From IMG/VR virus record IMGVR_UViG_3300016471_001002, positions 64,001 through 128,000 of that record: DNA of 64,000 nucleotides. The stretch is one strand, 5' to 3'. The position numbers and the translations under genes are program-made. Positions 4,243 to 26,920 of this stretch are shown here, piece after piece (position 1 is the stretch's first letter; each line of letters opens with the position of its first letter). A model generated the notes under the pieces. The model saw nothing but the letters and a program-made list of their open reading frames with translations. It was not told the origin of the DNA and ran no database searches. Source of the DNA: a virus. Lineage: Duplodnaviria; Caudoviricetes.

Positions 4243-4295
4243 ATTTATAATACAAAATAGTTTTTTTATGTATGATTTATTAAATTAGAGGTGTT

Positions 4296-4559
4296 ATGAA
4301 CTATAAAATTTCAGATTCAGTTGCGATGCGGTTTATTCAAATTTTTCAAGAGGCAGTTTTAATGGGAGTAGATGGCGCAGATTTAATGCGACAGGTTCGT
4401 TTAACTGTCGACGAGTCATCTCCTGATACGTTAACCTTACATCCTGAATATGAGAAAATGGTTGAAGCCCAGCATAAGAAATACCTTGAAGATGCTGAAA
4501 AATTAAAGTCTCAATCTGAAACTTTGACCGATGTTCCTAAATTAATTTTTGAGAATTGA
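4296..4559 (+). CDS. Hypothetical protein
   Basis: ORF track; SD GAGG at about 4286. Confidence 0.6.
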   Translation: MNYKISDSVAMRFIQIFQEAVLMGVDGADLMRQVRLTVDESSPDTLTLHPEYEKMVEAQHKKYLEDAEKLKSQSETLTDVPKLIFEN

Positions 4560-4637
4560 AACTGCGATGAAATTTGCAATATTCATGATATTGTTTTCTA
4601 TCATTGTTATCATGAAAGCTTCAAACACAAAGGAATA

Positions 4638-5006
4638 TTGATGGACAAGCTACAAGAAATGTGGGAGCAACAAAAACAATTTATGGAGTTGTTGCGACAA
4701 CAACGAGACTTTCCTCCATTTCCAGTTGATCCAACGTCTAAGTCTGGTCAAAAACTTCTTAAAGGAATTACGCATGAATGTATGCATGAGCTCTTCGAAG
4801 CTAACCAGACATTAAAAAACTCAAAGGATCATCGTGCAACAGATGTGAAAGAGTTTGATAGAGAACATTATGTCGAAGAGCTCGTCGACGCTCTTCATTA
4901 TTTTTTTGAAATTGCAATTCTTAGTGGCATAACTTTGGATGAGCTTCATGATTCATACATGAAAAAAGGCGAAACTAACGTAAACAGAATTAAAAATGGG
5001 TATTGA
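4638..5006 (+). CDS. All-alpha dimeric dUTPase/dCTPase (MazG-like superfamily)
   Basis: ECMHELFEA...K.H and EELVDALHYF acidic helices typical of the dUTPase_2/T4 gp56-like fold. Confidence 0.75.
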   Translation: MMDKLQEMWEQQKQFMELLRQQRDFPPFPVDPTSKSGQKLLKGITHECMHELFEANQTLKNSKDHRATDVKEFDREHYVEELVDALHYFFEIAILSGITLDELHDSYMKKGETNVNRIKNGY

Positions 5007-5111: not shown

Positions 5112-5471
5112 ATGTTGACTAGATACTACGATAGTATTCGCACACCTGTGTTTAATTTGCTTGATCCATTTAAGGTTTTTAACGACTTTGAAATGACGAG
5201 TTATCAACGTCAATTAGATTCTATTGATGAAGAAGGTATTAAAATTGAACTACCCGGTGTTAAATCCATGGATGTCGACGTAACGGTAGAAGGTAGAACT
5301 TTGAAAGTTTCAGGTAAATCTAGGCATGGAAAAGAATTTAGTTATGCTTACAATTTAAGATCAACTGTAGATGAATCAGGGATTGTTGCAAAGCTTGAAG
5401 ACGGTCTTTTGTCAATTTCTTTACCAAAGAAACAAGAGAGTACCGCAAGAAAAATTCACGTTTCTGGTTAA
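5112..5471 (+). CDS. Small heat-shock protein (Hsp20)
   Basis: IELPGVKSMDVDVTVEGRTLKVSG...AKLEDGLLSISLPK alpha-crystallin signature; SD AAGGAG. Confidence 0.88.
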   Translation: MLTRYYDSIRTPVFNLLDPFKVFNDFEMTSYQRQLDSIDEEGIKIELPGVKSMDVDVTVEGRTLKVSGKSRHGKEFSYAYNLRSTVDESGIVAKLEDGLLSISLPKKQESTARKIHVSG

Positions 5472-10228: not shown

Positions 10229-11308
10229 ATGCAACGAACGCTTTGTTTTGATGATGTTCTTTTAGTTCCCCAATACTCAGAGATTGAGTCTAGAAAAAAT
10301 GTTGACGTGTCTGTTTCGGGATTTGATGATCTTGATGCAGCGTTGACAAAATCGCATTCGACTCTAAAATGCCCTATCATCGGATCGCCGATGGATACGG
10401 TCATTAGTCCTGAAGTAGCTAGCGTTTTGGAAGATTTTGGTGGATTCGGGGTTTTGCATCGATATTGTACGATTCAAGATTCAGTAAAAATGTTCAAGGA
10501 AACACTTGAAAAGTGTCCAGGACATCCTTTACCAAATATCATGGTTGCAATTGGCGCAACAGGGGATTATCTTGAACGTGCAACTGCTCTATATGAAGCT
10601 GGATGTAGAGCATTTTGCATTGATGTTGCTCATGGCCATCATTCATCTGTTAAAAACGCATTAAAAGAACTACGTCTTAAACTTGGGGATGAAGTTCATT
10701 TAATGTCTGGCAATGTTGCAACGCTAGATGCGTTTAATGATCTTGCGGATTGGGGCTCTAACTCTATCAGGGTTGGTGTGGGTGGTGGAAGCATGTGTTC
10801 GACAAGAATTCGAACGGGTCATGGTATTCCAACTCTACAATCGGTGATGGATTGTGCAAAATCTGATCGTGATGTTTTTATCGTCGCAGATGGCGGAATT
10901 AGAAATTCAGGTGATGCTGTTAAAGCTTTGGCTGCAGGTGCTGATATGATTATGTTAGGATCTATTCTTGCAGGACATGATGAATGTCCCGGAGATCTTG
11001 TAGATTCTCATGGGTTGACATATAAGTCATCGCAACCTATTGGAGTTCCACTTTTTAAGAAATTTAGGGGAATGGCTTCACGAGAAGCTCAACTACAATG
11101 GAGAGGTAGAGTTTCTGTCGTTGAAGGAGAAAGTACGATGATCCCTTACAAGGGATCTGTAGCAAACACATTGACAGATTTGCTTGAAGGAATTAAATCA
11201 GGAATATCTTATTCAGGTGCCAGGACGATTAGAGAACTTAGATCAAAGGCTAAATTCATCACAGTGACATCACAAGGGGTCCGAGAAAATGGACCCCATG
11301 GTAAATGA
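10229..11308 (+). CDS. guaB: IMP dehydrogenase / GMP reductase family (no CBS domains)
   Basis: [32 protein letters not shown] (catalytic Cys), ADGGIR, FRGMAS, SYSGA. Confidence 0.85.
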
Positions 11309-12247: not shown

Positions 12248-13252
12248 ATGGCTAAAGGATTAGATGTAGGAACATCGTTCATCGTTCTTGCAGAAGAAGG
12301 AACGAAAGGAAAAGTTACATATAAAGATTTTCGAGATGCGTTTTATGTTATAAAACCAACGACCCCCATCGCTACAAAGATGATTGAAAAAGGATTAGCT
12401 GGAAAAGTTTTCGTTAAAGACGCCGATGGTTCATTCATCATACTTGGCAAAGACGCGATTGAAAAAGCAGTGGAAAGAAACGATTCAGCGAAGCGTCCCA
12501 TGTATAAAGGTGTAGTTTCTTCTAAAGAAAAAGACGCCCGCAGAATTTTAACATATATTCTCAAAGAAGTTGCTGGCTCACCACCTGAACCCGGAGAGAA
12601 GCTTGTTTTCTGCGTCCCGGCGCAACCTGTTGATCAAGAAGATGAAGACTTCGATGTAGGATATCATGAGGATGTCATTGTGAAACTCCTTTCAGAAGTA
12701 GGGTATTCAGCTAGAGCAATTAACGAAGCCGAAGCACTTTGTTACTCAGAACTAGAAAAGGATGATTATACCGGAGTCACACTATCATGGGGAGCTGGCA
12801 TGGTCAACGTTTGCGTTATGCTAAATGGCGAACCTATCGTCACATTCTCAACCACGAAGTCTGGTGATTGGGTTGATCGTATGGCAGCCGTTGCTACAGG
12901 CGAGACAGATTCAGTCGTTCAAGCAGAGAAGGAACAAGGCGATTTCACTGTCGGTCAACCAAACGATAATCAAGTTCTTGCTGCTGTTTCAACCTACTAT
13001 GATCGTCTCATCGATTATACGACTAAACAACTTGCTTCAGCCATGGACGGACACAAATCTCTTCCAAAGTTCAAGGATGCATTACCTGTAGTTGTTGCCG
13101 GTGGAACATCAAAGGCCAAGGGATTTGTCGATCTATTTGCAAAGAAGCTCGAAGAGAACGGTTTCCCTCTTCCAGTCAAGGAAGTTCGTCACGCAGCAGA
13201 TCCTCTTCATGCAGTTGCCCGTGGGTGTTTAATCGCAGCACAAATTATGTGA
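12248..13252 (+). CDS. Actin-like ATPase (MreB/MamK/ParM-type fold)
   Basis: GLDVGTS (phosphate 1), INEAEA (connect 1), SWGAGMVNV (phosphate 2), VVAGGTS (adenosine), DPLHAVARG (connect 2). Confidence 0.85.
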   Translation: MAKGLDVGTSFIVLAEEGTKGKVTYKDFRDAFYVIKPTTPIATKMIEKGLAGKVFVKDADGSFIILGKDAIEKAVERNDSAKRPMYKGVVSSKEKDARRILTYILKEVAGSPPEPGEKLVFCVPAQPVDQEDEDFDVGYHEDVIVKLLSEVGYSARAINEAEALCYSELEKDDYTGVTLSWGAGMVNVCVMLNGEPIVTFSTTKSGDWVDRMAAVATGETDSVVQAEKEQGDFTVGQPNDNQVLAAVSTYYDRLIDYTTKQLASAMDGHKSLPKFKDALPVVVAGGTSKAKGFVDLFAKKLEENGFPLPVKEVRHAADPLHAVARGCLIAAQIM

Positions 13253-13355: not shown

Positions 13356-14327
13356 ATGTCAAACAGCAAGAAGGAAATGCGCGATCGGAGGCCAAATCGT
13401 TTTGTCGGCCTCCACGCGCATTCGTAATTTCCGCCCGGAATTTATTTTCCGGGCGGAATAATATCAGGATTCTCAACATTTGATGGGCTTGATTATCCAC
13501 AAGAGCACATCGATTACGTCTTAGAAAATGGCATGGATGCGTGGGCATTAACCGACCATGGCCACATGAACGGATTCTGCCATGCATATCTTCACGCTGA
13601 AAAAATGAGGAAATCAGGCAAGAACTTCAAGTTCATTCCTGGATGCGAGATGTATGTCCATCCCGATCTGAAACAGTGGCAGATCGATATCGAAAAATCG
13701 AAAGAGAAACCGGTCAAGGATGAATCTATCATCACGCCTATCACGGCTGTTGTTGATGGAAACGATGAGACGACGGATCTTGGAACTGATGAAGCTTCTC
13801 TGACGATCGAAAATGAAGATGAGACGAAGTCAGGTAAGTATAACGACCCAGTTAAACGTCGGCATCATCTGGTTGTCCTACCAAAAACTTCAGTTGGTCT
13901 GCAGAGGTTATTCCATCTGGTTTCTCGGGGTTATTTGGAGGGCTTCTACAGGTTCCCCCGAATTGATTACAGGATGCTGAAGGAGGCTGCGCAAGGTGGT
14001 CACTTGATGGTGTCAACCGCATGTTTAACTGGAGATGTAGAACTCATAACGAATAGAGGCCTAGAAAACCTGTTGTCTGTCGTTGAAAGATTCAATATGG
14101 GTGATGATGTCTTGGTTCTTTCATATGACGAAAAAACAGGGTCTAAGGAATTCAAGAAAGTTTCTTGGGCAGCAATGACTAGAAAAAACGCGAAATTATT
14201 GAGAATTAAACTGAAGGATGGAAAGAGTGTTACGCTGACACCAGACCACAAAGTCTTTACTAATCTGGGATGGATGGAAGCTCAAGATTTAAAAAAGCAT
14301 GAAGGAATTCAAATTCTTACTTTGTAA
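13356..14327 (+). CDS. dnaE: DNA polymerase III alpha, N-terminal fragment (PHP domain) fused to split intein N-half; interrupted by an in-frame TAA at 13425
   Basis: MSNSKKEMRDRRPNRFVGLHAHS*(13 further codons)GFSTFDG...ALTDHG..GCE..RHHL..STA-CLTGD; same frame as ORF-track 13533. Confidence 0.85.
13425..13466 (+). other. 42-nt stop-plus-hairpin insert in dnaE (candidate ribosomal bypass element)
   Basis: TCG|TAA T TTCCGCCCGGAA TTTATT TTCCGGGCGGAA TAATA TCA|GGA; perfect 12-bp stem; removal restores H-A-H-S-G-F-S-T-F-D-G. Confidence 0.7.
14022..14324 (+). mobile_element. Split intein, N-fragment (101 aa)
   Basis: Block A CLTGDVELITNRG, block B VTLTPDHKVFT, then stop; no endonuclease domain inside. 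Confidence 0.9.
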
Positions 14328-14336
14328 GCTTTAGGT

Positions 14337-14368
14337 CCTCCAAGACAAACATAATTATGTCTTGGAGG
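14337..14368 (+). promoter_or_regulatory. RBS-sequestering hairpin with late-promoter-like motif in its loop
   Basis: CCTCCAAGACA-AACATAATTA-TGTCTTGGAGG; the 3' arm holds SD GGAGG of ATG 14379. Confidence 0.8.
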
Positions 14369-14378
14369 TTCACAAACA

Positions 14379-15359
14379 ATGGGAGCAGAAAAGTATAATA
14401 AATTTTTAGGAGAGGAAAAAAGCAGAATATTTGAAAGTTTTCTAGTTACGTGGAAAACAAAAGATCAAATACTCGAGATGTATAGAGAAGGTTATTCTCC
14501 TTCTCAACTTGCCAAGTTGTTTGAATATGAAGTTGGATTTGACGAGCTCCGTGAGCAACAATCTACTTTTCACGGTAAAAAACCAAGAAGCTTTTTAGTT
14601 TTTCCGACTATTACAACAAACATCTTTGCAAAAAGACTAACATCTATAATACCCTACTCAAAAGAGTTTCATGATATTCATCTTTCAAAACCGCAATGGT
14701 GGAAAATAAAATTTTCACACCTTGATAAAAGTGAAGATGAAGTTAAAGAACTTGCAAAAGTTCAGCTTCTAGATTGGCAAAAAAGTACATGCGAAAAAAG
14801 AAAAAAGTCAGGTGCTTATAATCCAATTTACACAATTGATTATTGGAAAGAGAAATCCGATGATCCTGAAAAATCAATTGAAAAATATAAACGAGAAATT
14901 AGTCCAAGGTGCATTGAGTTTTGGATAAAAAAAGGATATGACATAAATGAGGCAAAAAAAAGAATAGGCGATACATGTCGACCTGGTGCCATTAAGGTTT
15001 TGAAAAATCTCAATGGAAAAAATGCTTCGAAATTAGAAAAAAGAATTTATGAGCTCATAAATGATGATTCTGTTTGTCAACAGCTTTTTTTGGGCAAATA
15101 TGCATATGACATTTACAAAAAAGAAACAAAGAAGATCGTAGAAATCAATGGAACGTATTGGCACGCAGACCAAAGGGTTTATCAAGATTTGCAGCAAAAT
15201 CTCATTCATGGAACAGTTCAGCAGATTAGAGAAAAAGATGAACAAAAAATATCTTATGCAAAATCTAAGGGATGGGATGTTCTGGTCATTTGGGAACTTG
15301 ACTATTGCAAATCTCCAAATGAAGTGATAGAATCTATTAGAAGGTTTTTCAAAACATGA
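14379..15359 (+). mobile_element. Free-standing homing endonuclease, Vsr/DUF559-like C-terminal domain
   Basis: KLEKRIYE..YAYDIY..IVEINGTYWHAD..KDEQKISYAKSKGWDVLVIWE; (E/D)(F/Y)W.(K/E)K repeats; lies between the two intein halves. Confidence 0.8.
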
Positions 15360-18300
15360 GTAATTTTGTAGAAGTTGTTGAGGTCGAAGAACTTGATTAC
15401 GTCGAAGACGTCTATGATATTACCGTAGAAGATAATCATAACTTCTTTGCAAATGGGATGTTGGTTCACAATTGTCTCGGTGGCACGTTGAGTTATGACG
15501 TCTTTTCCAAATTGCAAAAGATCAAGTTTGATGATCTGAAGCATCAGTTGCTCGATGATGCTGCGCTATTTGAATCTGTCTTGCTCGAGATGGGCAACAC
15601 TTATGATAAGCTTGCAGATGCGGTAGGTCGCGAAAACGTTGCTTTGGAGTTGCAGTTCAATAAACTTCCAGCGCAACATCTTGTCAACCGCGCGCTGATC
15701 GAATTTGCGAAACGAAACTCTTTGTCGAATCGGCTAGTCGTCACCTGCGATTCGCATTATTCTCGTCCTGATAACTGGAAAGAACGTGAGATCTACAAGA
15801 AGCTCGGATGGCTCAACTATCAGAACTTCGATCCTAATATGCTTCCAAAGTCTAAGGATGATCTCAAATGTGAACTGTACCCGAAGAACGCAACCCAGGT
15901 CTGGGATTCATATCTGTCCACAACCGAAGGCATGGATTTCTATGATGATGACCTAATCCGCGAGGCCATCGAACGTACTCATGACATCGTTCATAATGAG
16001 TTAGGTGACATTCATCCCAATAAGGAGATGAAGCTTCCTTCATATGTGATTCCTGAAGGGTCGACGGAAGACAAGGCCCTCGTCGAAGCTTGTAAGAAAG
16101 GATTAATCTGGCGAGGTCTGGATGACAAGCCTGGGTATATCGAGCGAATCAAGTATGAGCTGAAGATTATTCGAGACAAGAAGTTTTCTCGATACTTCCT
16201 CACGATGAAGGCAATCATGGACCTTGCACGTGAACACATGCTGATTGGTCCGGGGCGCGGTTCGGCCGCAGGTTCTCTAGTTGCTTATGTCCTCGGCGTC
16301 ACGAACCTTGACCCAATTGAGTATGACCTTTCATTTGAACGGTTCCTTAATCCCTCTCGCCAGGGCGCTCCTGATATCGATTCTGATATTGGAGACCGCG
16401 ATAAGCTGATCGAACTTCTCCGTGATAATTTTGGTAATAACAATGTTATTCCAATCTCTAACTACAATACCTTTAAGCTTAAGAGCCTTGTCAAAGACAT
16501 TTCAAGATTTTATAACATTCCATTCGAAGAAGTCAATGCTGCTCTTGCTCCGGTAGAAGACGATGTCAAGAAAGAAGTCTTCAAACCTGGTGTCGACAAG
16601 AACCTTTTTGTGTTGACTTATGAAGACGCGATGAAGTATTCTAAGTCGATGCAAGACTTCGTTGCATCGCATCCTGAAGTCGCCGAACCGATTGAGATTC
16701 TTTTCAAGCAGAATCGTTCTCTTGGCCGCCATGCCGGCGGTGTTATCGTGTCTGAAGACATTGCTGAACGTATGCCTCTTATTCTCGCAAAGGGTGAACC
16801 TCAGACTCCATGGGTTGAAGGCATGCATTATAAGCATCTCGAAGAGTTCGGATGGATTAAGTTCGATCTACTCGGCCTCGAAACTTTGCGCATCATCGAA
16901 CGATGCATCTATCTAATTTTGCAAAGGCGTGAAGGAATTGCAAATCCAACGTTCCAAGACATTAAGGCTTGGTTTGATAAACACATGGATCCGAAGAATA
17001 TTGATCTAAATGATCAAAAAGTCTATGAATATGTTTATCACGAAGGAAGGTTTGCCGGCGTGTTCCAATGTACGCAACCTGGCGCACAGCGTCTATTTAC
17101 GAAAGCAAAGCCTCGTAGTATCATTGACATTGCTACTCTAACTTCAATCTATCGTCCAGGTCCTCTTGCGGCAAACGTCGACAAGATCTACATTGGCGCT
17201 AAGAACGAACCTGAAAAGATCGATTACCAACATCCTCTTATCAAGAAGGTGCTAGAACCGACTTACGGATGCATCATTTTTCAGGAGCAAACCATGAAAC
17301 TTTGCTCTGTCGTCGCAGGATTCCCTGAGGCAGAGACGGATACAATTCGCAGAAACATTATGAAACGTTCTGCTTCAAAGAAAGACGCCGCGGCAGCAGA
17401 CGCCAAGAAGGCCAAGGAAGACTTCGTTTCTGGTGCGATGAAGAATGGTGTTCCTGAAAGAGTGGCAGATGAACTCTATGAAAAGATTCTCTTCTTCTCC
17501 GGATACGGTTTTAACGCATCTCACGCAGTGTCTTATGCAATTGATTCTTACTACTGTGCATGGCTCCTCACTTACTTTGAGGAGGAATGGCTTTGTGCTT
17601 ATCTTGAATCGATGTCAGGAAATGATGAGAAGCGTGCTAAGGCTTTCTCAGAGGTCAAAGCGCTTGGATACAAGATCGTAAACATCGACGTCAACTATGC
17701 AACGAAGAGCTGGACTATCCTCGAAGGAAAAAGATTCATGCCAAGCTTCCTTTCATGTAAGGGCGTGGGGGAAGCTGCAGTTGATGAGATCATGGAAAAT
17801 CGTCCATACAAATCAATAGAGGACATGTTATGGAATGAGGACGGTACGTGGAAACATTCTAAATTCAACAAACGAGCTCTTGAAGCCCTGATCGGAATCA
17901 AGGCATTTGACTCATTGGATTGTGTTGGCGTAGATAGAACGTTTAGCAGCTATAGACAAATGTATCAAATCCTGATTGATCATAATAATGAAATCAAGAA
18001 GCATACCAAAAAGAACCCTCTCGTTGGAATGGAAGCATTTCGTAATCTCCTGATCGAATCTAAGGATGAACCTGAGTGGACTCGCGGTGAGATTGTCGAT
18101 AATAGCATTAAATACCTTGGTTCATTTAATGCAGCCATGTTAATGCCTGATGATATCCTAAAGAAGTTGGAATCCAGAGGTGTCAAATCAGTTGATGATC
18201 TTTCAGGTAGTGACATTTACTGGTTTATTGTTTCTGACGCAAAACCCAAAAAGACAAAAACAGGGAAAAACTATTTGCTTTTAACGATTACGGGTATTGG

Positions 18301-18442
18301 AGGTCAAAATCATAGATTGTTCTGTTGGGGGTGGGATGGTATTAGAGAAATTCCCAAGTACAGCGTTTGTCTTTCTGAAATCACAGTCGATGGATACGGT
18401 AATAAAACTTTTATGAGTAAGGTTAAAGTATTGGATTCATGA
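15356..18442 (+). CDS. dnaE: Split intein C-fragment (39 aa, 15356-15472) fused to DNA polymerase III alpha C-terminal fragment
   Basis: VYDITVEDNHNFFANGMLVHN-C (blocks F/G); DSHY, GPGRGSAAGSLVAY, PDIDSD, HAGG, KFDLLGL, RPGP, YGFNASHAVSY, C-terminal OB fold. Confidence 0.95.
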   Translation: MSNFVEVVEVEELDYVEDVYDITVEDNHNFFANGMLVHNCLGGTLSYDVFSKLQKIKFDDLKHQLLDDAALFESVLLEMGNTYDKLADAVGRENVALELQFNKLPAQHLVNRALIEFAKRNSLSNRLVVTCDSHYSRPDNWKEREIYKKLGWLNYQNFDPNMLPKSKDDLKCELYPKNATQVWDSYLSTTEGMDFYDDDLIREAIERTHDIVHNELGDIHPNKEMKLPSYVIPEGSTEDKALVEACKKGLIWRGLDDKPGYIERIKYELKIIRDKKFSRYFLTMKAIMDLAREHMLIGPGRGSAAGSLVAYVLGVTNLDPIEYDLSFERFLNPSRQGAPDIDSDIGDRDKLIELLRDNFGNNNVIPISNYNTFKLKSLVKDISRFYNIPFEEVNAALAPVEDDVKKEVFKPGVDKNLFVLTYEDAMKYSKSMQDFVASHPEVAEPIEILFKQNRSLGRHAGGVIVSEDIAERMPLILAKGEPQTPWVEGMHYKHLEEFGWIKFDLLGLETLRIIERCIYLILQRREGIANPTFQDIKAWFDKHMDPKNIDLNDQKVYEYVYHEGRFAGVFQCTQPGAQRLFTKAKPRSIIDIATLTSIYRPGPLAANVDKIYIGAKNEPEKIDYQHPLIKKVLEPTYGCIIFQEQTMKLCSVVAGFPEAETDTIRRNIMKRSASKKDAAAADAKKAKEDFVSGAMKNGVPERVADELYEKILFFSGYGFNASHAVSYAIDSYYCAWLLTYFEEEWLCAYLESMSGNDEKRAKAFSEVKALGYKIVNIDVNYATKSWTILEGKRFMPSFLSCKGVGEAAVDEIMENRPYKSIEDMLWNEDGTWKHSKFNKRALEALIGIKAFDSLDCVGVDRTFSSYRQMYQILIDHNNEIKKHTKKNPLVGMEAFRNLLIESKDEPEWTRGEIVDNSIKYLGSFNAAMLMPDDILKKLESRGVKSVDDLSGSDIYWFIVSDAKPKKTKTGKNYLLLTITGIGGQNHRLFCWGWDGIREIPKYSVCLSEITVDGYGNKTFMSKVKVLDS

Positions 18443-18451
18443 GGTACCATT

Positions 18452-18976
18452 ATGAGCATGGTCATTTTATTTGATGGGTCAGATAAGGTCGGCAAGACCG
18501 AAATGGCCAAAGAGTTATCACGAAGATTAAACATTCCTTACTTTAAGAACGAATCTGAATGGAATGCTTTTTCAAATGATCCTTCATATTTTAAAAATGC
18601 TTTACGATATGGAGATCCGTATTTTTATAATTTTCTAAAAAAGACTGGGACTTCAACGATTTTAGATAGATCTTATCCATCTGAATGGGTTTATTCTGAA
18701 GTGTATGGTCGTCAAACTGATATTGAAGCTTTAAATTACATTGATTCTTTGGCTGCATCAATTGGAGTAAAAATCATTGTTCCTTATAGAACTTCATATG
18801 AGGGTTTTCATGACGACATGCATGACATTGATTCTCGTCAAATGCAAATAATCTCTGACAAATATGCAGATTTTATAAAATGGACTAGATGCAAAACTTT
18901 GCATCTATGTGTTGATTCTGAAGACCTTGATTGGGAAATGAAAACCATTCTAGAATTTATTAACAAAAAAGGATAG
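18452..18976 (+). CDS. Second dNMP kinase-like protein
   Basis: ILFDGSDKVGKTEMAKEL P-loop; ILDRSYPSEWVY. Confidence 0.75.
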   Translation: MSMVILFDGSDKVGKTEMAKELSRRLNIPYFKNESEWNAFSNDPSYFKNALRYGDPYFYNFLKKTGTSTILDRSYPSEWVYSEVYGRQTDIEALNYIDSLAASIGVKIIVPYRTSYEGFHDDMHDIDSRQMQIISDKYADFIKWTRCKTLHLCVDSEDLDWEMKTILEFINKKG

Positions 18977-18977
18977 T

Positions 18978-20003
18978 ATGAAAATAGGAATCAGTTATTG
19001 GGGATTTTGTGAGTCATTTGAATCATCAAAAGAGGCCAAAACGCCGGATGGTCATCGTTATGGTCGGCCCATCATGGTCGATACTTTGATTGATAGAGGT
19101 CATGATGTATATGCGCTCCAACAACAACGAGAAGCAACACCATATCCAGGATTGAAATATGATGATGGATTTCCTGATTTAGATATCCTATTCGTTGAAT
19201 GGCGCTGGAAAACGTATAAAAATTCTGGACCTGATAAATTTGAGCCAGATCTTGACAGGCAATTTGCGTTGTTGTCAAAATATCATGGGAAAATTCCTGT
19301 CGTGATTTGGGATTGCGATTATAAAGTTTCTCATGTTGACGAAATGATGTGGCCTGAAGCAATTATCGCAGATCCTGCTTTCGAACCGAGGAATCTAACG
19401 AGGAAACGCGAAAGATTGATGTTTTGGACGAACTGGAAGAAGCTAATGCCAGTCAATTCGACTTCTTTTGAATACGGATATGTTGGCAACAATTATGAAA
19501 GGCCTCAGGCATTTGAGAGATATTATTCTTTACCCTCAGCGGGATTGCGAAGCTTAGGTATTCAAACGACTGTTCATGGTAATTGGTTAGAAGTTTCTCC
19601 AGAACGTGAATCGCCAAAGTCTTTGATTCAATCGCACCCAAATGTTGCGTTTGCTCCTAGATTAAATTTCTATGATTCAATGAAGAGGCTAAATTCTTTT
19701 ATCTGTACGACTCACATAACTAAACCAGAGTATGCTCAGAGAGGATTCGCTTCTCCTAGATACGTTGAAAATATAGTTTCAAACGTTCCAGCGCTTGTTC
19801 CTGAAGAGTTTTTAATTCCTTCATTATTAGGAAGCCGTTGGACAGTAAATGGTTCTGGGTCCGTTGTGGAAAAGGTTAGTTTAATTTCTTCTATGAATCT
19901 TGAAGATAGAACCGAATTAATTTTAGAACAAGAAAATAATTTAAAGTCAAGCGGTGTATTTTCAATTAACAGTGTTGTAGATTTTCTAGAGTCACTTAAG
20001 TGA
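18978..20003 (+). CDS. DNA glycosyltransferase, T4 beta-glucosyltransferase-like (GT-B)
   Basis: MKIGI start; YGYVGNNYER, TVHGNW, FASPRYVENIVSNVPALVPEEF parallel the recalled T4 BGT segments IYGGSFR, EFFGN, FITLRVWETMASDAVMLIDEEF. Confidence 0.7.
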   Translation: MKIGISYWGFCESFESSKEAKTPDGHRYGRPIMVDTLIDRGHDVYALQQQREATPYPGLKYDDGFPDLDILFVEWRWKTYKNSGPDKFEPDLDRQFALLSKYHGKIPVVIWDCDYKVSHVDEMMWPEAIIADPAFEPRNLTRKRERLMFWTNWKKLMPVNSTSFEYGYVGNNYERPQAFERYYSLPSAGLRSLGIQTTVHGNWLEVSPERESPKSLIQSHPNVAFAPRLNFYDSMKRLNSFICTTHITKPEYAQRGFASPRYVENIVSNVPALVPEEFLIPSLLGSRWTVNGSGSVVEKVSLISSMNLEDRTELILEQENNLKSSGVFSINSVVDFLESLK

Positions 20004-20010
20004 GGAAAAG

Positions 20011-21000
20011 ATGAAAGTATTAATTACAGGTGTTGCAGGACTTCTTGGTGCCAATTTCTCTAGATACCTTTTAGAAAAAGGATACAAGGTCGTAGGAATT
20101 GACGACCTCAGCGGAGGATACGTCGATTCAGTTCATAAAGATGTGACGTTTTACGAACAAGATCTTTGGGATAGAGACGCAGTAGAAAGTATCTTTTCAT
20201 CTGAAAAGCCCGATTATGTTTTTCATTTTGCAGCATATGCAGCAGAAGGATTAAGTCCATTTATTAGAAATTACAATTACACGAATAATGTTCTTTCTTC
20301 TGCAAATATTATTAACGCGTGTGTTAATAACAATGTTAAGAAAGTTATTTTTACTTCATCAATGGCCGTCTACGGCGTAGGAAAGCCTCCATTTACAGAA
20401 GATCAATTACCAACGCCAGAAGACCCATACGGAATTGCAAAGTATGCAGTTGAAATGGATTTGAAGCTTGCTCATGAAATGTTTGGTCTAAAATACAGTA
20501 TTGTTCGACCACATAATGTCGTTGGCATTTATCAAAACATTTGGGATCGATATAGAAACGTCATAGGCATTTGGATTCGTAAAGCCATGAACAATGAACC
20601 TCTGTCTATCTTTGGTGACGGAACACAAGTTAGAGCATTCTCTGATATTAAGTTTTATATGGAACCTTTCGAGAAGCTTATGATGTCTCATGACGGAGAA
20701 ATTTTTAATATTGGTGCAGACAAATATTATACGATCAATGAAGCTGCAGATGTAGTAATCGATGTAGCAAAAGAATTGGGAATTAACGCAACGAAAGTTC
20801 ATCTAGAAAAGAGGAATGAGGTTCACACAGCTTATTGCGACCATGCGAAAGCTCATGAACTCTTAGGGTTTAACGACCAAACAAATCTTCGAGAAACTGT
20901 TATGAAAATGTTTAAATGGGCGTTAGAACAACCGAACCGTCCAACAAAAATGATGAATTATGAAATTGAGAAAAACATGTATTCATTCTGGAAGAAATGA
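20011..21000 (+). CDS. NAD-dependent epimerase/dehydratase (extended SDR)
   Basis: TGVAGLLG, TSSMAVYG, YGIAK (YxxxK), GDGTQVRAF. Confidence 0.92.
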   Translation: MKVLITGVAGLLGANFSRYLLEKGYKVVGIDDLSGGYVDSVHKDVTFYEQDLWDRDAVESIFSSEKPDYVFHFAAYAAEGLSPFIRNYNYTNNVLSSANIINACVNNNVKKVIFTSSMAVYGVGKPPFTEDQLPTPEDPYGIAKYAVEMDLKLAHEMFGLKYSIVRPHNVVGIYQNIWDRYRNVIGIWIRKAMNNEPLSIFGDGTQVRAFSDIKFYMEPFEKLMMSHDGEIFNIGADKYYTINEAADVVIDVAKELGINATKVHLEKRNEVHTAYCDHAKAHELLGFNDQTNLRETVMKMFKWALEQPNRPTKMMNYEIEKNMYSFWKK

Positions 21001-21003
21001 CAT

Positions 21004-21786
21004 ATGACTACGACATCATTGACATTTCCTGAAAAGATCCCTGATAGAGAAAAATTTATTTTTGATCAAGTTATGTCAGGAAACTTTGAAGCTTCTTGGT
21101 CATCGCTTGAATACACTGTTTCAGGAAAAAAAGTTAGATTAAATGTAATGTCTGACGCCTTGAAGATCGGAGGCATTAGAGTGAACGTTTCTGCTACGTT
21201 GCAACAACAGCTAGCTGACATTTTTGATGCATCGTTGTTAACGGCACAAGTTGCTGATTTAATGTACATCAATGCAAGTCATATTTTAAATCCATCTCCG
21301 CAAACAATTTCAACGACTGTTGCTTCCATGATTTCTCATGATAGTAAAGTCACTAAACAATTAGGCGTCTATTCAGGAGGAATTGTTTCAACGGTTGGAA
21401 AACATTGGATTTTGGACAAAAAGATAGATCAATCTCCTAATCGTGCTTGCAATTATGGATGGCATTTTACTGGATCAAATTTTCAAGGAATAAATGGATT
21501 TCCTTGTGCGTCTACATTTAAAAGCATAAATGGAAAGCAAGTTAAAGTTATTCAACCTAATGCAGTAGCCCATGATTCAAGGCATAGTGATTATTCGCAG
21601 ATTTGTCAACTTGTTTCGCAACAATGTTGGATTGATGATGTAGAATATAGATTCTCTGATGTTCTTCAAAATCCTTCTTTTTGTGATCTTATTAATCATA
21701 ATGGAGTTTTAAAAAATGTCAGACAACCTGGCGTTCAAAAAGTATCAGGACAAATTGTTTTATTTCCAGTCGTAATTACTTCTTGA
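21004..21786 (+). CDS. Hypothetical protein, possible His-dependent hydrolase
   Basis: GKHW, NYGWH, HDSRHSDYSQ. Confidence 0.5.
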   Translation: MTTTSLTFPEKIPDREKFIFDQVMSGNFEASWSSLEYTVSGKKVRLNVMSDALKIGGIRVNVSATLQQQLADIFDASLLTAQVADLMYINASHILNPSPQTISTTVASMISHDSKVTKQLGVYSGGIVSTVGKHWILDKKIDQSPNRACNYGWHFTGSNFQGINGFPCASTFKSINGKQVKVIQPNAVAHDSRHSDYSQICQLVSQQCWIDDVEYRFSDVLQNPSFCDLINHNGVLKNVRQPGVQKVSGQIVLFPVVITS

Positions 21787-21793
21787 GGTTAAC

Positions 21794-22003
21794 ATGCCGA
21801 CTTACGAATATCAATGTGAAGCTTGCAAACATTTATTGGAAACCTTTCAATCAATAAAAGATGATCCTTTGACTACTTGCCCCAATTGTAATTCAGAGAC
21901 AATGAAACGCTTAATTTCCGCCGGCGGAGGTTTTACTTTGAAAGGTGGAGGTTGGTATAAAGATCTTTACGCTTCAAATAAGTCTTCTATTTCTTCTGAA
22001 TAG
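21794..22003 (+). CDS. FmdB-family zinc-ribbon protein
   Basis: MPTYEYQCEACKH...CPNC...KRLIS..GFTLKGGGWY. Confidence 0.88.
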   Translation: MPTYEYQCEACKHLLETFQSIKDDPLTTCPNCNSETMKRLISAGGGFTLKGGGWYKDLYASNKSSISSE

Positions 22004-22712
22004 AAGGTTGTTTTTTTGCGATGTTCCTACTTGTTCTAGCTGCAACATGACTTGGCTTTATTAAGTTATGCTCATCTTCATTTTGTTTTGATTCAAATGT
22101 AGGTTTAATTTCGCCGGTTTCACAATTTAAAATTATATTATATCCCCCATGTGCAAGTGTAAGAGGCGCTTTTATTGTAGATAGATAATCATATCTTGCT
22201 TCATTTATCATTTCTTTATCAAACCAAGGGTCTAGAACAAAATTTGAAACGCTAACGTTTTTTCCATTGATGTTTATTTCATAAGAGCTATTTTCTACTG
22301 GATCGCAAACTTCAACTGCAACAAAAGTTTCGTCCCCTCTGTGCGACCAGAGATTTATAAAAGGATTATAAAAAGTTTCAAGAATTTCATGAGAAAGAAC
22401 GACAGAAACAGATTTTGTTCCATTTAATATCGTTCCTCCGTTATTTAAGATAGGATTTACAAACACTCTACCCCAAACTTTCCCATCAGGATCTTGCGAA
22501 TGATAACCTAATGCAGTAGCGTGATCACTATCATCCATTATGACCATCGGAAATCCATCGTTGCCATCAATTTTTATTTCCCATTCAATCCTTCCAAGAA
22601 GCGGAGCAGCATGATCTTTTAATTGAACTCTGCAAGCTTCAACCATTAGTTCTAAATCTTCTTTTGATATCTTAGATGATTTGTTTATTACGTTGAATGT
22701 TTTCATTATCAT
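21987..22712 (-). CDS. Putative zincin-like metalloprotease
   Basis: LGYHS, SHEILET, EVCDPVE; start placed at MIMKTF (22712) to avoid overlap with the next gene. Confidence 0.5.
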   Translation of the reverse strand: MIMKTFNVINKSSKISKEDLELMVEACRVQLKDHAAPLLGRIEWEIKIDGNDGFPMVIMDDSDHATALGYHSQDPDGKVWGRVFVNPILNNGGTILNGTKSVSVVLSHEILETFYNPFINLWSHRGDETFVAVEVCDPVENSSYEININGKNVSVSNFVLDPWFDKEMINEARYDYLSTIKAPLTLAHGGYNIILNCETGEIKPTFESKQNEDEHNLIKPSHVAARTSRNIAKKQPSIQKK

Positions 22713-22761
22713 AATTAATGAACTTTTTATGTTTGCGCAGTAATATTTTATTGAAGTTTTT

Positions 22762-23724
22762 ATGAAAAAAGTTTTATTAACAGGCGGCGCAGGTTTTATA
22801 GGAAGCAATATTGCTCGTAAATTGGAAGAATTAAATTTTGATTTTGATATTGTGGATGATTTGTCAAATGGATTTATTGAGTTTTTGCCTGAAAATATCA
22901 AATCAAAATTGATTCTTGACGATTTTTCTTCCGAAGCAATCTTAGAAAAGATACGCAATAAAGAGTATGATTATGTAATGCACATCGCTGCTGTTCCAAG
23001 AGTAAGTTACTCTGTAGAGTATCCTATAAAGACAAATGATATCAACGTTTCAAAGACTTTAAGGTTGATTGAAGCTTGTAAGAATAATGTAAAGAGAATA
23101 GTTTTTGCATCGTCGTCATCAGTTTATGGAAATACTGATGTACTTCCCACAACAATTTTGCAAAATAAAAACCCTCAATCTCCATATGCTTTACAAAAAT
23201 CAATCATAGAAGATTATCTAAGATTGTATAGCTCTTTATACGGATTAGATTCAGTTTGCCTTAGGTTTTTTAACGTCTTTGGACCAAATCAACTTGGGGG
23301 TTCTCCTTATGCAACAGTCGTTGGATCTTGGCTCACTGCAATCAAAAGTGGAACCTCAATGAGATCAGACGGAGATGGAACGCAGTCTAGAGATATGTGT
23401 TACATAGACAACGTAGTTGATGCATGCATCAAAGGAATTCAAGTTGATCATGCTTTGAAAGCAGAATGTTTAAATATTGCATGTGGAGACAGGACAACAA
23501 ATAAAGAAATTCTTCAATACCTTTTGACCAAATATCCAAATGCTAAGTACCATGATGCACCATGGAGACCAGGCGATGTCATGCACACGCTTGCAGACAT
23601 TTCAAAAACAGAGGAAATCCTAGGATACAAACCGTTGGTGAGATTTTGGGAAGGCCTAGATTTAACCATAAAGTGGTATGAAGAAAATTGGGATATGATT
23701 AAAACTTTGATTCTTAAGGCATAA
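22762..23724 (+). CDS. NAD-dependent nucleotide-sugar epimerase (WbpP/GalE-like SDR)
   Basis: TGGAGFIGS, ASSSSVYG, YALQK, RFFNVFGPNQ, GDGTQSRD, RPGDVMHTLADISK. Confidence 0.92.
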   Translation: MKKVLLTGGAGFIGSNIARKLEELNFDFDIVDDLSNGFIEFLPENIKSKLILDDFSSEAILEKIRNKEYDYVMHIAAVPRVSYSVEYPIKTNDINVSKTLRLIEACKNNVKRIVFASSSSVYGNTDVLPTTILQNKNPQSPYALQKSIIEDYLRLYSSLYGLDSVCLRFFNVFGPNQLGGSPYATVVGSWLTAIKSGTSMRSDGDGTQSRDMCYIDNVVDACIKGIQVDHALKAECLNIACGDRTTNKEILQYLLTKYPNAKYHDAPWRPGDVMHTLADISKTEEILGYKPLVRFWEGLDLTIKWYEENWDMIKTLILKA

Positions 23725-23725
23725 T

Positions 23726-24727
23726 ATGAAAGCATATAATAACTTCACAGAAGCTTATGTTGACATCATAAAAGATGTCTATTCTAATCCAGAATTTACT
23801 TCATCGCCTAGAGGTATGAAGGTTAAAGAAATTTTAGGATATCAATTTAAAATTCTAAATCCTAGAAACAGAATTCCTTATGTTCCTGGTAGAGATTTGT
23901 CAGTTCATTACATGATTGCTGAACTTTTATGGTATTTGAGTGGAAATAATTCCACTGAATGGATTAGCAATTATTCTGCGTTTTGGTCTAAAATTTCTGA
24001 TGACGGTAGCACAGCTAATAGCGCTTATGGTGCAAGAATTTTTAAACCTCATGATAGAATTGCATCGACAATCAAGCAAGATTGGACGCAATGGGATTAT
24101 GTTATCAATGAACTAAAATCTGATCCTGATTCAAGACGTGCAGTTATTCATATTCGTTCCCCACAAGATTCATTGTTAGCACAGCTCGATGTTCCATGCA
24201 CATTATCATTGCAATTTTTCTTGCGAAATGATAAAGTACACATGGTCGTTTCTATGAGATCTTCAGATGTCATCCTTGGCTTGGCATACGACGTGCCAGC
24301 TTTCACAATTTTCCAAGAATTGCTCGCTGTACAATTAACAAAAGAGCTTGGAAGATCAATTGGATTAGGGTCTTATACGCACCTTAGCGCATCTCTACAT
24401 GTGTACGAGAGGCACTTTAAAATGGTCGAAAAAATACTTAATGAAGATATGAAGCAAGATTATCGAAACATTCCTGAGATGCCTCTGATGCCTAGTGATA
24501 TTCCTCTTGAAGATCTAATGGCTGTTGAAAAAGATCTAAGAAAATCTAAAACTTCAAGTTCTTTGATCAAAACTGTAGAGAATTTTGGTTTTTCTAATGA
24601 TTATTGGAAAGATTGGTGTAAAGTTTTGGCATCTCACAAAGCATTGAAATTAGATGATCAAAAAACGTCAAATGATCTTCTTTCATCAACAATTTTTGAA
24701 GGGTATAGGTATTTTACGAAGCCATGA
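23726..24727 (+). CDS. Thymidylate-synthase-fold enzyme, probably dCMP hydroxymethylase
   Basis: SRRAV, DVPCTLSLQF, MRSSDVILGLAYDV (Asp where dUMP-specific ThyA has Asn), SLHVYERH. Confidence 0.78.
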   Translation: MKAYNNFTEAYVDIIKDVYSNPEFTSSPRGMKVKEILGYQFKILNPRNRIPYVPGRDLSVHYMIAELLWYLSGNNSTEWISNYSAFWSKISDDGSTANSAYGARIFKPHDRIASTIKQDWTQWDYVINELKSDPDSRRAVIHIRSPQDSLLAQLDVPCTLSLQFFLRNDKVHMVVSMRSSDVILGLAYDVPAFTIFQELLAVQLTKELGRSIGLGSYTHLSASLHVYERHFKMVEKILNEDMKQDYRNIPEMPLMPSDIPLEDLMAVEKDLRKSKTSSSLIKTVENFGFSNDYWKDWCKVLASHKALKLDDQKTSNDLLSSTIFEGYRYFTKP

Positions 24728-25302
24728 CCACAACATTTACTGTATTTTGCGGGCCGATGTTTTCTGCAAAAACTACTTCTTTATTATCTGTTCTTGATAG
24801 ATTCAAGTATCAAGGTAAAAAGATTGCTGTTTTTAAACCGAAGTTAGATGACAGGTATAGCGAATCTGACGTTTCTACGCATGGGGGATGGAAAATGCCG
24901 GCAATTTGCGTAAAGTTAGGAACTGATATCTTAGAGCATCTTGCTAATATGGAAGAAAATCCTCAAGTAATTGCTGTTGATGAAGCCTTTATGATACCAG
25001 GAGTAGCAGATGTATTGGTTTGGTTATATAGAAGCGGGTATTCAGTTGTGGTTTCTAGCTTGGATTTATCTGCAACTGGAAAACCATTCTTAGAAGTTGA
25101 AAAAATGTTGCCTTGGGCAACGAAGGTAGAAAAATTAAGCGCAGTTTGTACAGTATGTAATAAAGACGCTTTTTACACGTATAAGAAACAAACAGGTGGA
25201 GATGAAATAGAAGTTGGAGGAAATGAACTATATGAGCCGAGATGTTCTCGTTGCCATCCTTCAATCTTAAATCGAGATGGAGTTTATTCTACAAGAGGTT
25301 GA
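24724..25302 (+). CDS. tdk: Thymidine kinase
   Basis: GPMFSAKTT, FKPKLDDRY, IAVDEAF, AVCTVC, IEVGGNELYEPRCSRC. Confidence 0.92.
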   Translation: MTTTFTVFCGPMFSAKTTSLLSVLDRFKYQGKKIAVFKPKLDDRYSESDVSTHGGWKMPAICVKLGTDILEHLANMEENPQVIAVDEAFMIPGVADVLVWLYRSGYSVVVSSLDLSATGKPFLEVEKMLPWATKVEKLSAVCTVCNKDAFYTYKKQTGGDEIEVGGNELYEPRCSRCHPSILNRDGVYSTRG

Positions 25303-25304
25303 TT

Positions 25305-25781
25305 ATGTCAAATTCTTTGGATCGACATGTAAAAAAGTTGTCAGTTTTCATGAAAATGTGTAATGAATTATCTTCATTGTCATACGACGACAAATATAAA
25401 GTTGCTTCAATCATAATCACTAAAGACTATAGAGAAGTATGTGCAATAGGGTATAACGGAGGATATAAGGGAGGTCCTAATAAGAGATCTTCTTTAGACC
25501 ATGGTAAATCTGGTTTTCTTCATGCGGAAGAAAATGCATTGTTTCATTTATGCAAACCATATGAATTAAGAAATGATCTTTTAATGTTATGCACGCATAA
25601 ACCATGTTCGATGTGTGCAAGGAGGATTGTTAATAGTGGGATCAAGGATATTGTGTATTATGCTGATTATACTGATGCAGAAGCCGCTACCGATCATATT
25701 TTTGAGATTACTGGAACTTCTTGCACTAAATTTGATGATATTTTGCAAAACCCAGCTGCTATCATGAATATTCGAGCGTGA
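25305..25781 (+). CDS. dCMP deaminase
   Basis: IGYNG, HAEENAL, PCSMC; ATG 25305 in frame with ORF-track 25242. Confidence 0.88.
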   Translation: MSNSLDRHVKKLSVFMKMCNELSSLSYDDKYKVASIIITKDYREVCAIGYNGGYKGGPNKRSSLDHGKSGFLHAEENALFHLCKPYELRNDLLMLCTHKPCSMCARRIVNSGIKDIVYYADYTDAEAATDHIFEITGTSCTKFDDILQNPAAIMNIRA

Positions 25782-25809: not shown

Positions 25810-26181
25810 ATGAAGCAAAAGCTTACAGGAAATTACATTATCAATCTTATGAGAGAAGAATGGCAAAAAAAAGTTAATTCTTTACTCTCAGAAACTCCCT
25901 CGCAAAAGAAAAAGCCACGAGGGTTAAAGATGCAAGTCGACGTCGATGGAGATGGAAGTAAAGAGAACGTGATTGATGTTGGTTTGAAGGTACAAAAAAA
26001 GATGCCAGATGACAAACGCATAAATGTTAAAGGTGACCCCACTTCTGGATTAGTTTATACTGTAGTTTCAGTGAACGATCAGGATAAAACGATTACTTTA
26101 AGCAGACCAGATTCTGGTAACGGCGAGAAAACAATAGTTATAACAAAACAAGCTTTTGAGAACGAATATCAAAGAAAGTGA
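25810..26181 (+). CDS. Hypothetical protein (N-terminal 'INLMREEW..LLSE')
   Basis: ORF track; SD GGAG; ATAATTA at 25785-25791. Confidence 0.55.
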   Translation: MKQKLTGNYIINLMREEWQKKVNSLLSETPSQKKKPRGLKMQVDVDGDGSKENVIDVGLKVQKKMPDDKRINVKGDPTSGLVYTVVSVNDQDKTITLSRPDSGNGEKTIVITKQAFENEYQRK

Positions 26182-26191
26182 TGATGCTATC

Positions 26192-26920
26192 ATGAACATT
26201 AAATCTTTAGGCGTAGACTTAGATAATATCCTCAAGGATGCAGTAAAAAATTCAATTAAAGCACAAACTAAAGAATTGCCTACTGCTGAAAAACTAGATG
26301 AAGCTTATGTTGCTGAGCCTAAGGTTTTTAAGCAAGTTTCTGAATTTTCTACTCAAAAAACAAAAGACGCACATGACACCTTATATAAAGGATATGTCGA
26401 ATCTTTAAACAAAATTTCCGCAGAGCTAGATTCTGCAGATCGAAATGCAGCTGATTCTAAACATTCTCAATATCGTTCTTTAAAACTCGATGAAGTTTAT
26501 AATTTAAATGCGACATGGCTTCATGAGCTATATTTTGCAAATGCATTTGATCCTCACTCTGAAATCACCATGGATTCATTATCCTATATGAGACTTGAAA
26601 GAGATTTCGGAACGTTTGAAGATTGGCAAAAAGATTTCATGGCTTGCGCATTATCTTCAGGGAGTGGATGGGCCGTGTGCGGATATCATATCTTTTTGCA
26701 AAGATACGTCAATACTGTAGTTAGCCACCACAGCGGAGACGTCATGCTTGGTTTATATCCAGTTATCGTTGTTGACATGTGGGAACATGCTTATTATAGA
26801 GATTACTTGAATGACAAAAAGAGTCATCTTGTGGCAAGAATGAGAGAATTTGATTGGGATGTGATTGAGGAAAGAGTAAAGAAAGCTGAGTTAATTTCTC
26901 AAGCCATAAAGGTGAAGTGA
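26192..26920 (+). CDS. sod: Fe/Mn superoxide dismutase with N-terminal extension
   Basis: Ligands present: AHDTLYKGYV, WLHELYF, VDMWEHAYY; GSGWA. Confidence 0.85.
   Translation: MNIKSLGVDLDNILKDAVKNSIKAQTKELPTAEKLDEAYVAEPKVFKQVSEFSTQKTKDAHDTLYKGYVESLNKISAELDSADRNAADSKHSQYRSLKLDEVYNLNATWLHELYFANAFDPHSEITMDSLSYMRLERDFGTFEDWQKDFMACALSSGSGWAVCGYHIFLQRYVNTVVSHHSGDVMLGLYPVIVVDMWEHAYYRDYLNDKKSHLVARMREFDWDVIEERVKKAELISQAIKVK

Follow-up and report, generated by a model that had tools for sequence, protein, structure and literature searches.

Gene content of the module

We analysed a 64,000-nucleotide window of phage DNA (bases 64001-128000 of the linear 211-kb IMG/VR virus record IMGVR_UViG_3300016471_001002) that contains, at positions 18452-25781, a gene module predicted earlier to hypermodify hydroxymethylcytosine (hmC), probably with a sugar other than glucose. 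As the record measures 211 kb and is estimated to be about 65% complete, we regard the virus as a jumbo phage. The open reading frames lie at exactly the coordinates given in that original prediction and all genes named there are present. Directly 3' of a split, intein-bearing dnaE gene, which ends at position 18442 and is the conserved left neighbor of the module, the plus strand encodes a small P-loop kinase, a glycosyltransferase, two epimerases that are short-chain dehydrogenases/reductases (SDR) of the extended type, a ThyA-fold enzyme, a thymidine kinase and a dCMP deaminase. Three further genes of the span had not been mentioned before and encode a 260-aa protein, a 69-aa zinc-ribbon protein and a 239-aa protein. 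The last of these lies on the minus strand and divides the module into two tightly packed plus-strand gene strings.

Judged from these genes, the phage most likely replaces the cytosine of its DNA with hmC and adds a sugar by means of an uncharacterised enzyme family. On balance we favor a T4-type pathway of cytosine replacement and glycosylation that operates in a DnaE-type jumbo phage with a transferase family remotely related to the T4 beta-glucosyltransferase (BGT). Gene identities, a residue signature, a protein fold and gene linkage carry this proposal, and each biochemical step is deduced from them.

The ThyA-fold enzyme is a predicted dCMP 5-hydroxymethylase

The ThyA-fold gene (23726..24727, plus strand; PF00303, 5.9e-32) encodes a predicted dCMP 5-hydroxymethylase that combines a MilA-like architecture with deoxy-type residues. 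The protein contains RSSDVILGLAYDV, as quoted in the original prediction. When it was compared with T4 gp42 and MilA, a check that had been proposed along with the prediction, MilA (5jnh) matched at 8.5e-44 and the T4 dCMP hydroxymethylase at 1.9e-15. MilA is the best solved relative, and its alignment spans the whole protein with the C-terminal extension.

The Weigele and Peters laboratories, in a paper of 2026, gave tested residue rules for enzymes of this fold (PMC13326640). In E. coli ThyA numbering, a change of N177 to Asp selects dCMP (PMC13326640; also PMC5175136). A change of L143 to Asp or Glu accompanies hydroxymethyl rather than methyl products, the acidic residue letting water in, and Asn in place of D169 is the hallmark of the flavin-dependent 5-hydroxy-dCMP synthases of the RB69 gp48 type (PMC13326640). 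The preference of MilA for ribo-CMP is due to Ala176 and Lys133, and an A176S/K133R double mutant switches to dCMP (PMC5175136).

In the phage protein, the catalytic Cys158 (LDVPC; C146 in E. coli) aligns with the catalytic Cys residues of T4 gp42 and MilA. Three residues before it, the L143 position is occupied by Asp, which stands there in 23 of 24 relatives as well. The D169 position retains its Asp (RSSDV), and the N177 position is also Asp, with AYDV aligning to RNDY of T4 and SDV of MilA. Ser and Arg stand at the positions of MilA A176 and K133 and are of the deoxyribose type (Ser167 and Arg126'). A direct BLASTP alignment with T4 gp42 gave an identical active-site pattern, and the signature sets the protein apart from ThyA as well as from the 5-hydroxy-dCMP synthases. 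Because Asp143, the retained Asp169, Asp177 and the Ser and Arg residues occur together, hm-dCMP is the predicted product and not 5-hydroxy-dCMP, 5-methyl-dCMP or hm-CMP. We therefore hold it highly probable, as far as residues can tell, that the enzyme is an hm-dCMP synthase. The full hydroxymethylase signature thus agrees with the product originally proposed; the hydroxy-dCMP that had been offered as an alternative loses its footing, since the diagnostic D169N change is absent here and in every relative.

The Asp at N177 fixes only cytosine as the substrate and the product rules derive from a limited set of characterised enzymes, so that another C5 product, either 5-methyl-dCMP as for Xp12 or 5-hydroxy-dCMP as for RB69, has to be considered. 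We regard this as very unlikely. Asp at position 143 in place of a bulky hydrophobic residue argues against methyl transfer, and the flavin hydroxylase class is disfavored by the retained D169. The pattern, identical to that of T4 gp42, recurs in the 24 relatives, D169 in all of them and Asp at position 143 in at least 23.

Asp-type ThyA homologs are not confined to this subfamily. At least three more subfamilies are found in related DnaE phages (L050, L053, L055, L067, L083, L087-L090 and L101), all having Asp at N177 and a retained D169, with motifs of the T4 gp42-like SDFxCTN, DYPCTH and NDVPCTY types. Hence hmC synthesis appears to have been gained several times in the DnaE phage group.

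The glycosyltransferase has a GT-B fold and a BGT-like donor domain

The gene at 18978..20003 (plus strand) encodes a protein of 341 aa for which Pfam, PHROG and NCBIfam gave no match. It belongs to an uncharacterised family and is, on the grounds of its predicted fold and its gene linkage, a candidate hmC-DNA glycosyltransferase. The AlphaFold model, which was built from an alignment of 27 homologs, has a pLDDT of 93 and shows the GT-B fold with two Rossmann domains. In an exhaustive structural comparison (VIA), T4 BGT (1c3j) ranked first with a Z score of 22.1 and an rmsd of 3.7 over 294 aligned residues. GT4 enzymes tied with it at Z 21.6, those such as PimA and BshA lying within one Z unit of BGT, and the T4 alpha-glucosyltransferase gave Z 20.1. 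A Foldseek search with the model returned 1qkj at 7.9e-10.

At the sequence level, hhalign aligned the transferase to a six-member BGT family profile (72%, E 3.4e-5, 130 columns) in the C-terminal donor-binding domain only; the alignment to T4 BGT as a single sequence was weak (8%). The residues R261, E264 and an EEF motif, which are invariant in the transferase family, coincide with R269, E272 and EEF, which are invariant in BGT. From the BGT structures we take Arg269 and Glu272 to be donor-binding residues, and we assume that the BGT N-domain carries the catalytic base Asp100 and the base-flipping DNA-binding surface. The term BGT-like is fair for the fold and the donor domain and is not meant to imply membership in the BGT family. 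The proposed comparison with T4 BGT gave a remote likeness in fold and C-terminal domain; the Pfam BGT model PF09198 (CAZy GT63) does not match.

The family comprises 241 word-indexed homologs and 371 representative clusters among 1.8 billion proteins, nearly all of them metagenomic, and its members were found only on viral or metagenomic contigs. When three members were compared by tblastn with 50,697 GenBank phage genome records (INPHARED), no homolog was found, and a megablast of the entire 7.3-kb region against the same records gave zero matches.

Transferase and Asp-type ThyA genes are linked across phage lineages

The strongest evidence came from the pairing of the two genes. Among 36 IMG/VR loci that encode the transferase, an Asp-type ThyA gene was found within about 3 kb in all 33 that are not truncated. 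The small kinase was almost always present, with dnaE as neighbor, and each of the 24 distinct ThyA partners carried the hydroxymethylase signature. The pairing extends to distant family members (profile E 3e-50 to 2e-23), in four of four of which an Asp-type ThyA gene is directly adjacent. The small contigs on which these members reside belong to other types of phage and encode DnaE or PolB (a family-B polymerase in one case), and genes for a P-loop kinase and a dUTPase_2 protein usually lie upstream. Such a pairing supports glycosyl-hmC DNA as the probable product, and it would not be expected to be kept by a transferase acting on protein or lipopolysaccharide. The proposal that a BGT-like enzyme glycosylates hmC accordingly gains support from two sides, the remote likeness to BGT and the tie to Asp-type ThyA in many phage lineages. 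We consider it fairly probable that the transferase acts on hmC DNA.

Several properties of the family, in addition to the missing PF09198 match, weigh against this assignment. The family is acidic, with an isoelectric point of about 5.9 vs 9.05 for T4 BGT, its N-terminal acceptor domain is unlike that of BGT and cannot be aligned with it in sequence, and the GT4 enzymes that tie with BGT in the structural scores act on small molecules and lipids. The closest relative of the ThyA homolog, MilA, is an enzyme of nucleoside antibiotic synthesis. These properties would suit a phage in which hm-dCMP or hmC is made and the acceptor of the transferase is not DNA but a nucleotide, a small molecule, a protein or a glycan of the envelope. 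We consider such an acceptor unlikely, because the transferase gene strictly adjoins genes for Asp-type ThyA and a replicative polymerase in many unrelated phage backbones and because the residues of the ThyA homolog are of the deoxy type. Moreover, a MilB-like N-glycosidase was not found in the 211 kb, and no hint of membrane association or secretion was noted for the transferase.

In some relatives, the transferase slot beside the kinase and the Asp-type ThyA is filled by proteins of about 430-445 aa (L085:7675-8997, L076:8071-9363, L053:8625-9953 and L050:7512-8849). None of them has a Pfam match, and the L085 protein, the sole one searched in PHROG, had no match there. The slot proteins of about 440 aa from relatives such as L085 show zero similarity to the transferase family and may represent a different, undescribed DNA-modifying enzyme.

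The epimerases are backbone genes of the phage group

Both epimerases are nucleotide-sugar 4-epimerases of the extended SDR type. Epimerase 1 (20011..21000, plus strand) is GalE/Gne-like (Pfam Epimerase, 1.9e-48) and its best PDB match is the Thermotoga UDP-glucose 4-epimerase 4zrm (2.4e-47). Epimerase 2 (22762..23724, plus strand) is WbpP/WbgU/6DNT-like (Pfam Epimerase, 1.6e-46), with matches to 6dnt (2e-58), WbgU (5e-52) and WbpP (2e-43) and with TviC as the best NCBIfam match. Both proteins match the Pfam model over the full length and carry epimerase-type motifs; the hallmarks of such enzymes are a Rossmann GxxGxxG, the catalytic Ser and YxxxK, without the Asp-Glu pair of dehydratases. The SSS and YxxxK motifs were seen in the alignments to 6dnt, WbgU and 4zrm.

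In such epimerases a Tyr gatekeeper admits hexoses only and a small residue also admits N-acetylated substrates (PMC3792076). At the gatekeeper position, which is Ser in WbgU and TmGalE, epimerase 1 has Ala and epimerase 2 has an invariant Thr276. Since both residues are small, N-acetylated substrates should be permitted for both enzymes, a prediction that concerns the permitted and not the actual substrate. Enzymes of the WbpP/WbgU/TviC type act on UDP-GlcNAcA in vivo and are always paired with a dehydrogenase (PMC3682973).

A survey anchored on epimerase 2 yielded 47 loci of the group in which dnaE is followed by epimerase, thymidine kinase and dCMP deaminase genes. Ten of these contain the transferase, 14 contain other Asp-type ThyA subfamilies without the transferase and 23 contain neither. 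From these loci, we conclude that the epimerases are backbone genes around which the cassette of kinase, transferase and ThyA was inserted or lost, and their presence therefore does not show that the sugar is other than glucose. The original prediction had treated the two epimerases as dedicated to the modification. This does not hold, given that epimerase 2 orthologs keep their slot between dnaE and the thymidine kinase-dCMP deaminase genes in the 23 loci with neither partner and that one such locus, L077, even has both epimerases. In 20 of these contigs (49-237 kb), the ThyA fold and the transferase family were found nowhere on the contig. These distributions count against a sugar pathway fed by the epimerases, as does the absence of a dehydrogenase partner for epimerase 2 from the 211 kb of the roughly 65% complete record. 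More generally, the occurrence of a sugar epimerase within a DNA-modification cluster is no evidence that it feeds that pathway.

Two observations concern the neighborhood of the backbone epimerase. In relatives without a ThyA-fold gene, the stretch that separates dnaE from the epimerase still encodes a P-loop (AAA_28/Tmk-like) protein of 303-342 aa (L056:9067-9978 and L077:7149-8177). In a relative whose Asp-type ThyA is of a different subfamily, the epimerase has a C5 cytosine DNA methylase-like gene beside it (L087:8835-10013).

The nature of the sugar

If the epimerases are auxiliaries of the phage backbone, with a role for example in host envelope or virion glycan metabolism, the transferase could simply make T4-like glucosyl-hmC from UDP-glucose of the host. 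Besides the loci that keep epimerases without ThyA and transferase, this explanation can draw on the many cassette-bearing lineages that have a single epimerase and on the distant loci L044, L046 and L047, which have none nearby. It has difficulty with the interleaving of epimerase genes between transferase and ThyA in the clade of the window and in L001, L004, L020 and L023, and with the sugar-tailoring genes found inside the cassette itself. We judge plain glucosyl-hmC rather unlikely.

A gene for UDP-galactopyranose mutase (GLF, E about 1e-77) lies within the kinase-transferase-ThyA cassette of sister lineages (L024:8850-9962, L027:8763-9989, L004:8379-9473 and L045:4879-6000). It occurs there in three separate arrangements: ThyA-GLF-transferase-kinase-epimerase in many marine contigs, epimerase-GLF-kinase-transferase in L004 and L019, and UDG-GLF-transferase-ThyA in the distant L045. 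Within the dnaE group, GLF is found only where the transferase is. Its position suggests that these sister phages may contain galactofuranosyl-hmC. In other relatives, the variable slot beside the transferase contains Gfo/Idh/MocA plus SDR genes, an FAD oxidoreductase plus SDR gene, or a methyltransferase gene (L022:8422-10001, L020:7724-9474 and L021:7281-8141), and these genes may likewise serve to tailor a sugar or the base. Because sister lineages insert GLF or other sugar-tailoring genes into the cassette, donors other than glucose are plausible for the transferase family.

The claim of a non-glucose sugar thus retains some ground through the mutase in the cassettes of sister lineages, and it can no longer be derived from the epimerases of the window. 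For a sugar of the galactose or N-acetylgalactosamine type, supplied by the two 4-epimerases, we see a chance that falls just short of even. More tentative still is the wider proposal that the 341-aa protein is the founding member of a new hmC-DNA glycosyltransferase family with donors that diversified by lineage, comprising galactofuranose where the mutase is present, tailored sugars (keto, amino or other) in the cassettes with oxidoreductases, and galactose or N-acetylgalactosamine on hmC, an undescribed base, in the phage studied here.

We also searched the 211 kb for genes that would define the sugar, namely those for a GT1 transferase (PF00534), a sugar nucleotidyltransferase, a UDP-sugar dehydrogenase, GLF and a MilB-like glycosidase, and found none of these, a result that leaves their absence from the phage unproven as the record is incomplete. 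The only other recognisable transferase was a GT2-methyltransferase fusion 94 kb away and outside the window (L043:8203-9510; G000:158203-159510), which adjoins phage-borne PrkA, SpoVR and YeaH (DUF444) genes.

Nucleotide supply and proposed pathway

The small P-loop protein (18452..18976, plus strand; 174 aa) resembles nucleotide or nucleoside kinases and is a candidate hm-dCMP kinase. It matches PHROG 761, thymidylate kinase, at 2e-10, contains a Walker A motif (GxxxxGKT) and an invariant DR motif, and its profile matched SPbeta YorR (2axp, 6.5e-7) and deoxyguanosine kinase (5.5e-5). In nearly all related loci its gene adjoins that of the glycosyltransferase. At the other end of the module, thymidine kinase (24724..25302, plus strand; Pfam TK, 1.3e-39) and dCMP deaminase (25242..25781, plus strand; Pfam dCMP_cyt_deam_1, 4.5e-17; PHROG dCMP deaminase, 1.6e-25) are encoded.

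Upstream, at 2993-5006, the predicted pair of ThyX and thymidylate kinase (Tmk) and an all-alpha NTP pyrophosphatase were found as well. ThyX (2993-3652, plus strand; Pfam Thy1, 7.4e-36) and Tmk (3649-4242, plus strand; Pfam Thymidylate_kin, 1.5e-16) would form a separate supply of dTMP and dTDP, and ThyX is thus available for dTMP synthesis, as had been assumed. The pyrophosphatase (4638..5006, plus strand) is of the MazG/dimeric-dUTPase-like type and a candidate dCTPase. It matched Pfam dUTPase_2 (1.1e-5) in its C-terminal part only, PHROG nucleotide pyrophosphohydrolase at 3.5e-14 and T4 gp56 in BLASTP at 7e-6 over just 42 aa. Homologs are found near the cassette in relatives.

In the pathway that we propose, the MazG-like pyrophosphatase and dCMP deaminase would shape the pools of dCTP, dCMP and dUMP, and ThyX, Tmk and thymidine kinase would provide thymidine nucleotides. 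The ThyA-fold enzyme would convert dCMP to 5-hydroxymethyl-dCMP, which the small P-loop kinase would phosphorylate and which the nucleoside diphosphate kinase of the host would convert to hm-dCTP for incorporation by the phage DnaE polymerase. After replication, the GT-B transferase would move a sugar from a UDP-sugar to the 5-hydroxymethyl group in DNA, and the resulting sugar coat would shield the genome from restriction and CRISPR nucleases. Two further points speak against the scheme: the phage is uncultured and present in public runs as contigs only, and the T4 deoxynucleoside monophosphate (dNMP) kinase gp1 is absent from the PDB matches of the kinase profile, with which no direct comparison was made.

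If the proposal is correct, glycosyl-hmC extends to abundant uncultured DnaE-type jumbo phages of freshwater and marine habitats and gains a new transferase family and possibly new sugars. The cassettes with mutase, with oxidoreductases and with one or two epimerases would then form a natural series in which one could follow the diversification of DNA sugar coats under pressure from restriction, type IV and CRISPR defences. Transferases of this kind could serve as reagents for labelling 5hmC.

Other genes of the region and its occurrence

The split dnaE (13533..18442, plus strand), which encodes the alpha subunit of DNA polymerase III, includes an endonuclease as well as the halves of an intein; Pfam matches here are PHP, Intein_splicing, DNA_pol3_alpha, finger and HHH_6. 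Within the module, the 260-aa protein (21004..21786, plus strand) probably lies outside the pathway. It has no Pfam, PHROG or NCBIfam match, and its AF2 model (pLDDT 91) shows a weak C-type-lectin/FGE-like fold with Z up to 8.1. The gene is limited to the closest freshwater clade, and many Cys, His and Asp residues are invariant in the large viral family to which the protein belongs. In the AFDB, its look-alikes form parts of fusions with amidase, SLT or carbohydrate-binding proteins, the cellular ones with peptidoglycan hydrolases. A role as second transferase was considered and dropped in view of this fold and of the fusions to cell-wall hydrolases. The 69-aa protein (21794..22003, plus strand) is an FmdB-type zinc-ribbon protein (Pfam Zn_ribbon_8, 3.5e-17). 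The 239-aa protein (21987..22706, minus strand), without a match in Pfam, PHROG or NCBIfam, belongs to a hypothetical family of about 600 members (Atlas).

Near the module, the window also encodes a Volactin-family actin homolog (12248-13252, 7e-66), an IMPDH/GMP-reductase family protein (10229-11308, 4e-87), an Fe/Mn superoxide dismutase (26156-26920) and an HSP20 chaperone (5112-5471). A scan of the region for promoters and terminators found fewer promoter-like sites than in shuffled sequences.

More than 10 studies of freshwater and lakes yielded metagenomes that contain DNA nearly identical to that of the phage. Two lake metatranscriptome sets contain short fragments of at least 99% identity over the genes for epimerase 1, the 260-aa, zinc-ribbon and minus-strand proteins, epimerase 2 and ThyA. 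As carry-over of DNA is possible, these fragments are at most a weak hint of expression of the module in lakes.

Comparison with known systems

To our knowledge, hmC has been found glycosylated only in T-even phages, with glucose and gentiobiose as the sugars. The glucosyl-hmC system of T4 consists of the gp56 dCTPase, gp42 dCMP hydroxymethylase, gp1 dNMP kinase, the dCMP deaminase cd and the alpha- and beta-glucosyltransferases, and these enzyme roles have predicted counterparts here. In T4, b-gt adjoins gene 42, with gene 43 close by; likewise, the transferase gene described here lies beside that of the predicted hydroxymethylase and near the polymerase gene. The active-site pattern shared with gp42 and the alignment of the C-terminal transferase domain to the BGT family add to the resemblance. 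Differences are equally clear. The replicase is DnaE and not a family B enzyme, the ThyA homolog is MilA-like with a C-terminal extension of about 80 aa, the kinase resembles YorR and deoxynucleoside kinases, with gp1 missing from its matches, and the transferase forms an acidic family of its own, which escapes the Pfam BGT model. In addition, dTMP would come from ThyX instead of the ThyA-type Td, and sugar epimerases are found in the cluster.

MilA (PDB 5JNH, 5B6D), which acts as CMP 5-hydroxymethylase in the synthesis of mildiomycin, shares with the phage enzyme the full-length similarity, the C-terminal helical extension and Asp at both L143 and N177. It differs in having Ala176 and Lys133, which fit ribo-CMP, where the phage enzyme has the Ser and Arg that fit dCMP; the MilB partner of the mildiomycin system has no counterpart in the 211 kb.

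The 5-hydroxycytosine phages RB69, DLP3 and RL38JI resemble the phage described here in combining a ThyA homolog, a dNMP kinase, DNA glycosyltransferases and phage-encoded enzymes for nucleotide sugars (PMC13326640). They differ by the D169N change and by genes of an arabinose-5-phosphate pathway, both absent here; given the missing D169N, we predict a hydroxymethyl linker and not a direct ether. Arabinose and hexoses have been found on 5-hydroxycytosine, and for RL38JI-type phages a galactofuranose pathway with UDP-galactopyranose mutase has been proposed (PMC13326640), the same enzyme that sister lineages of this phage carry.

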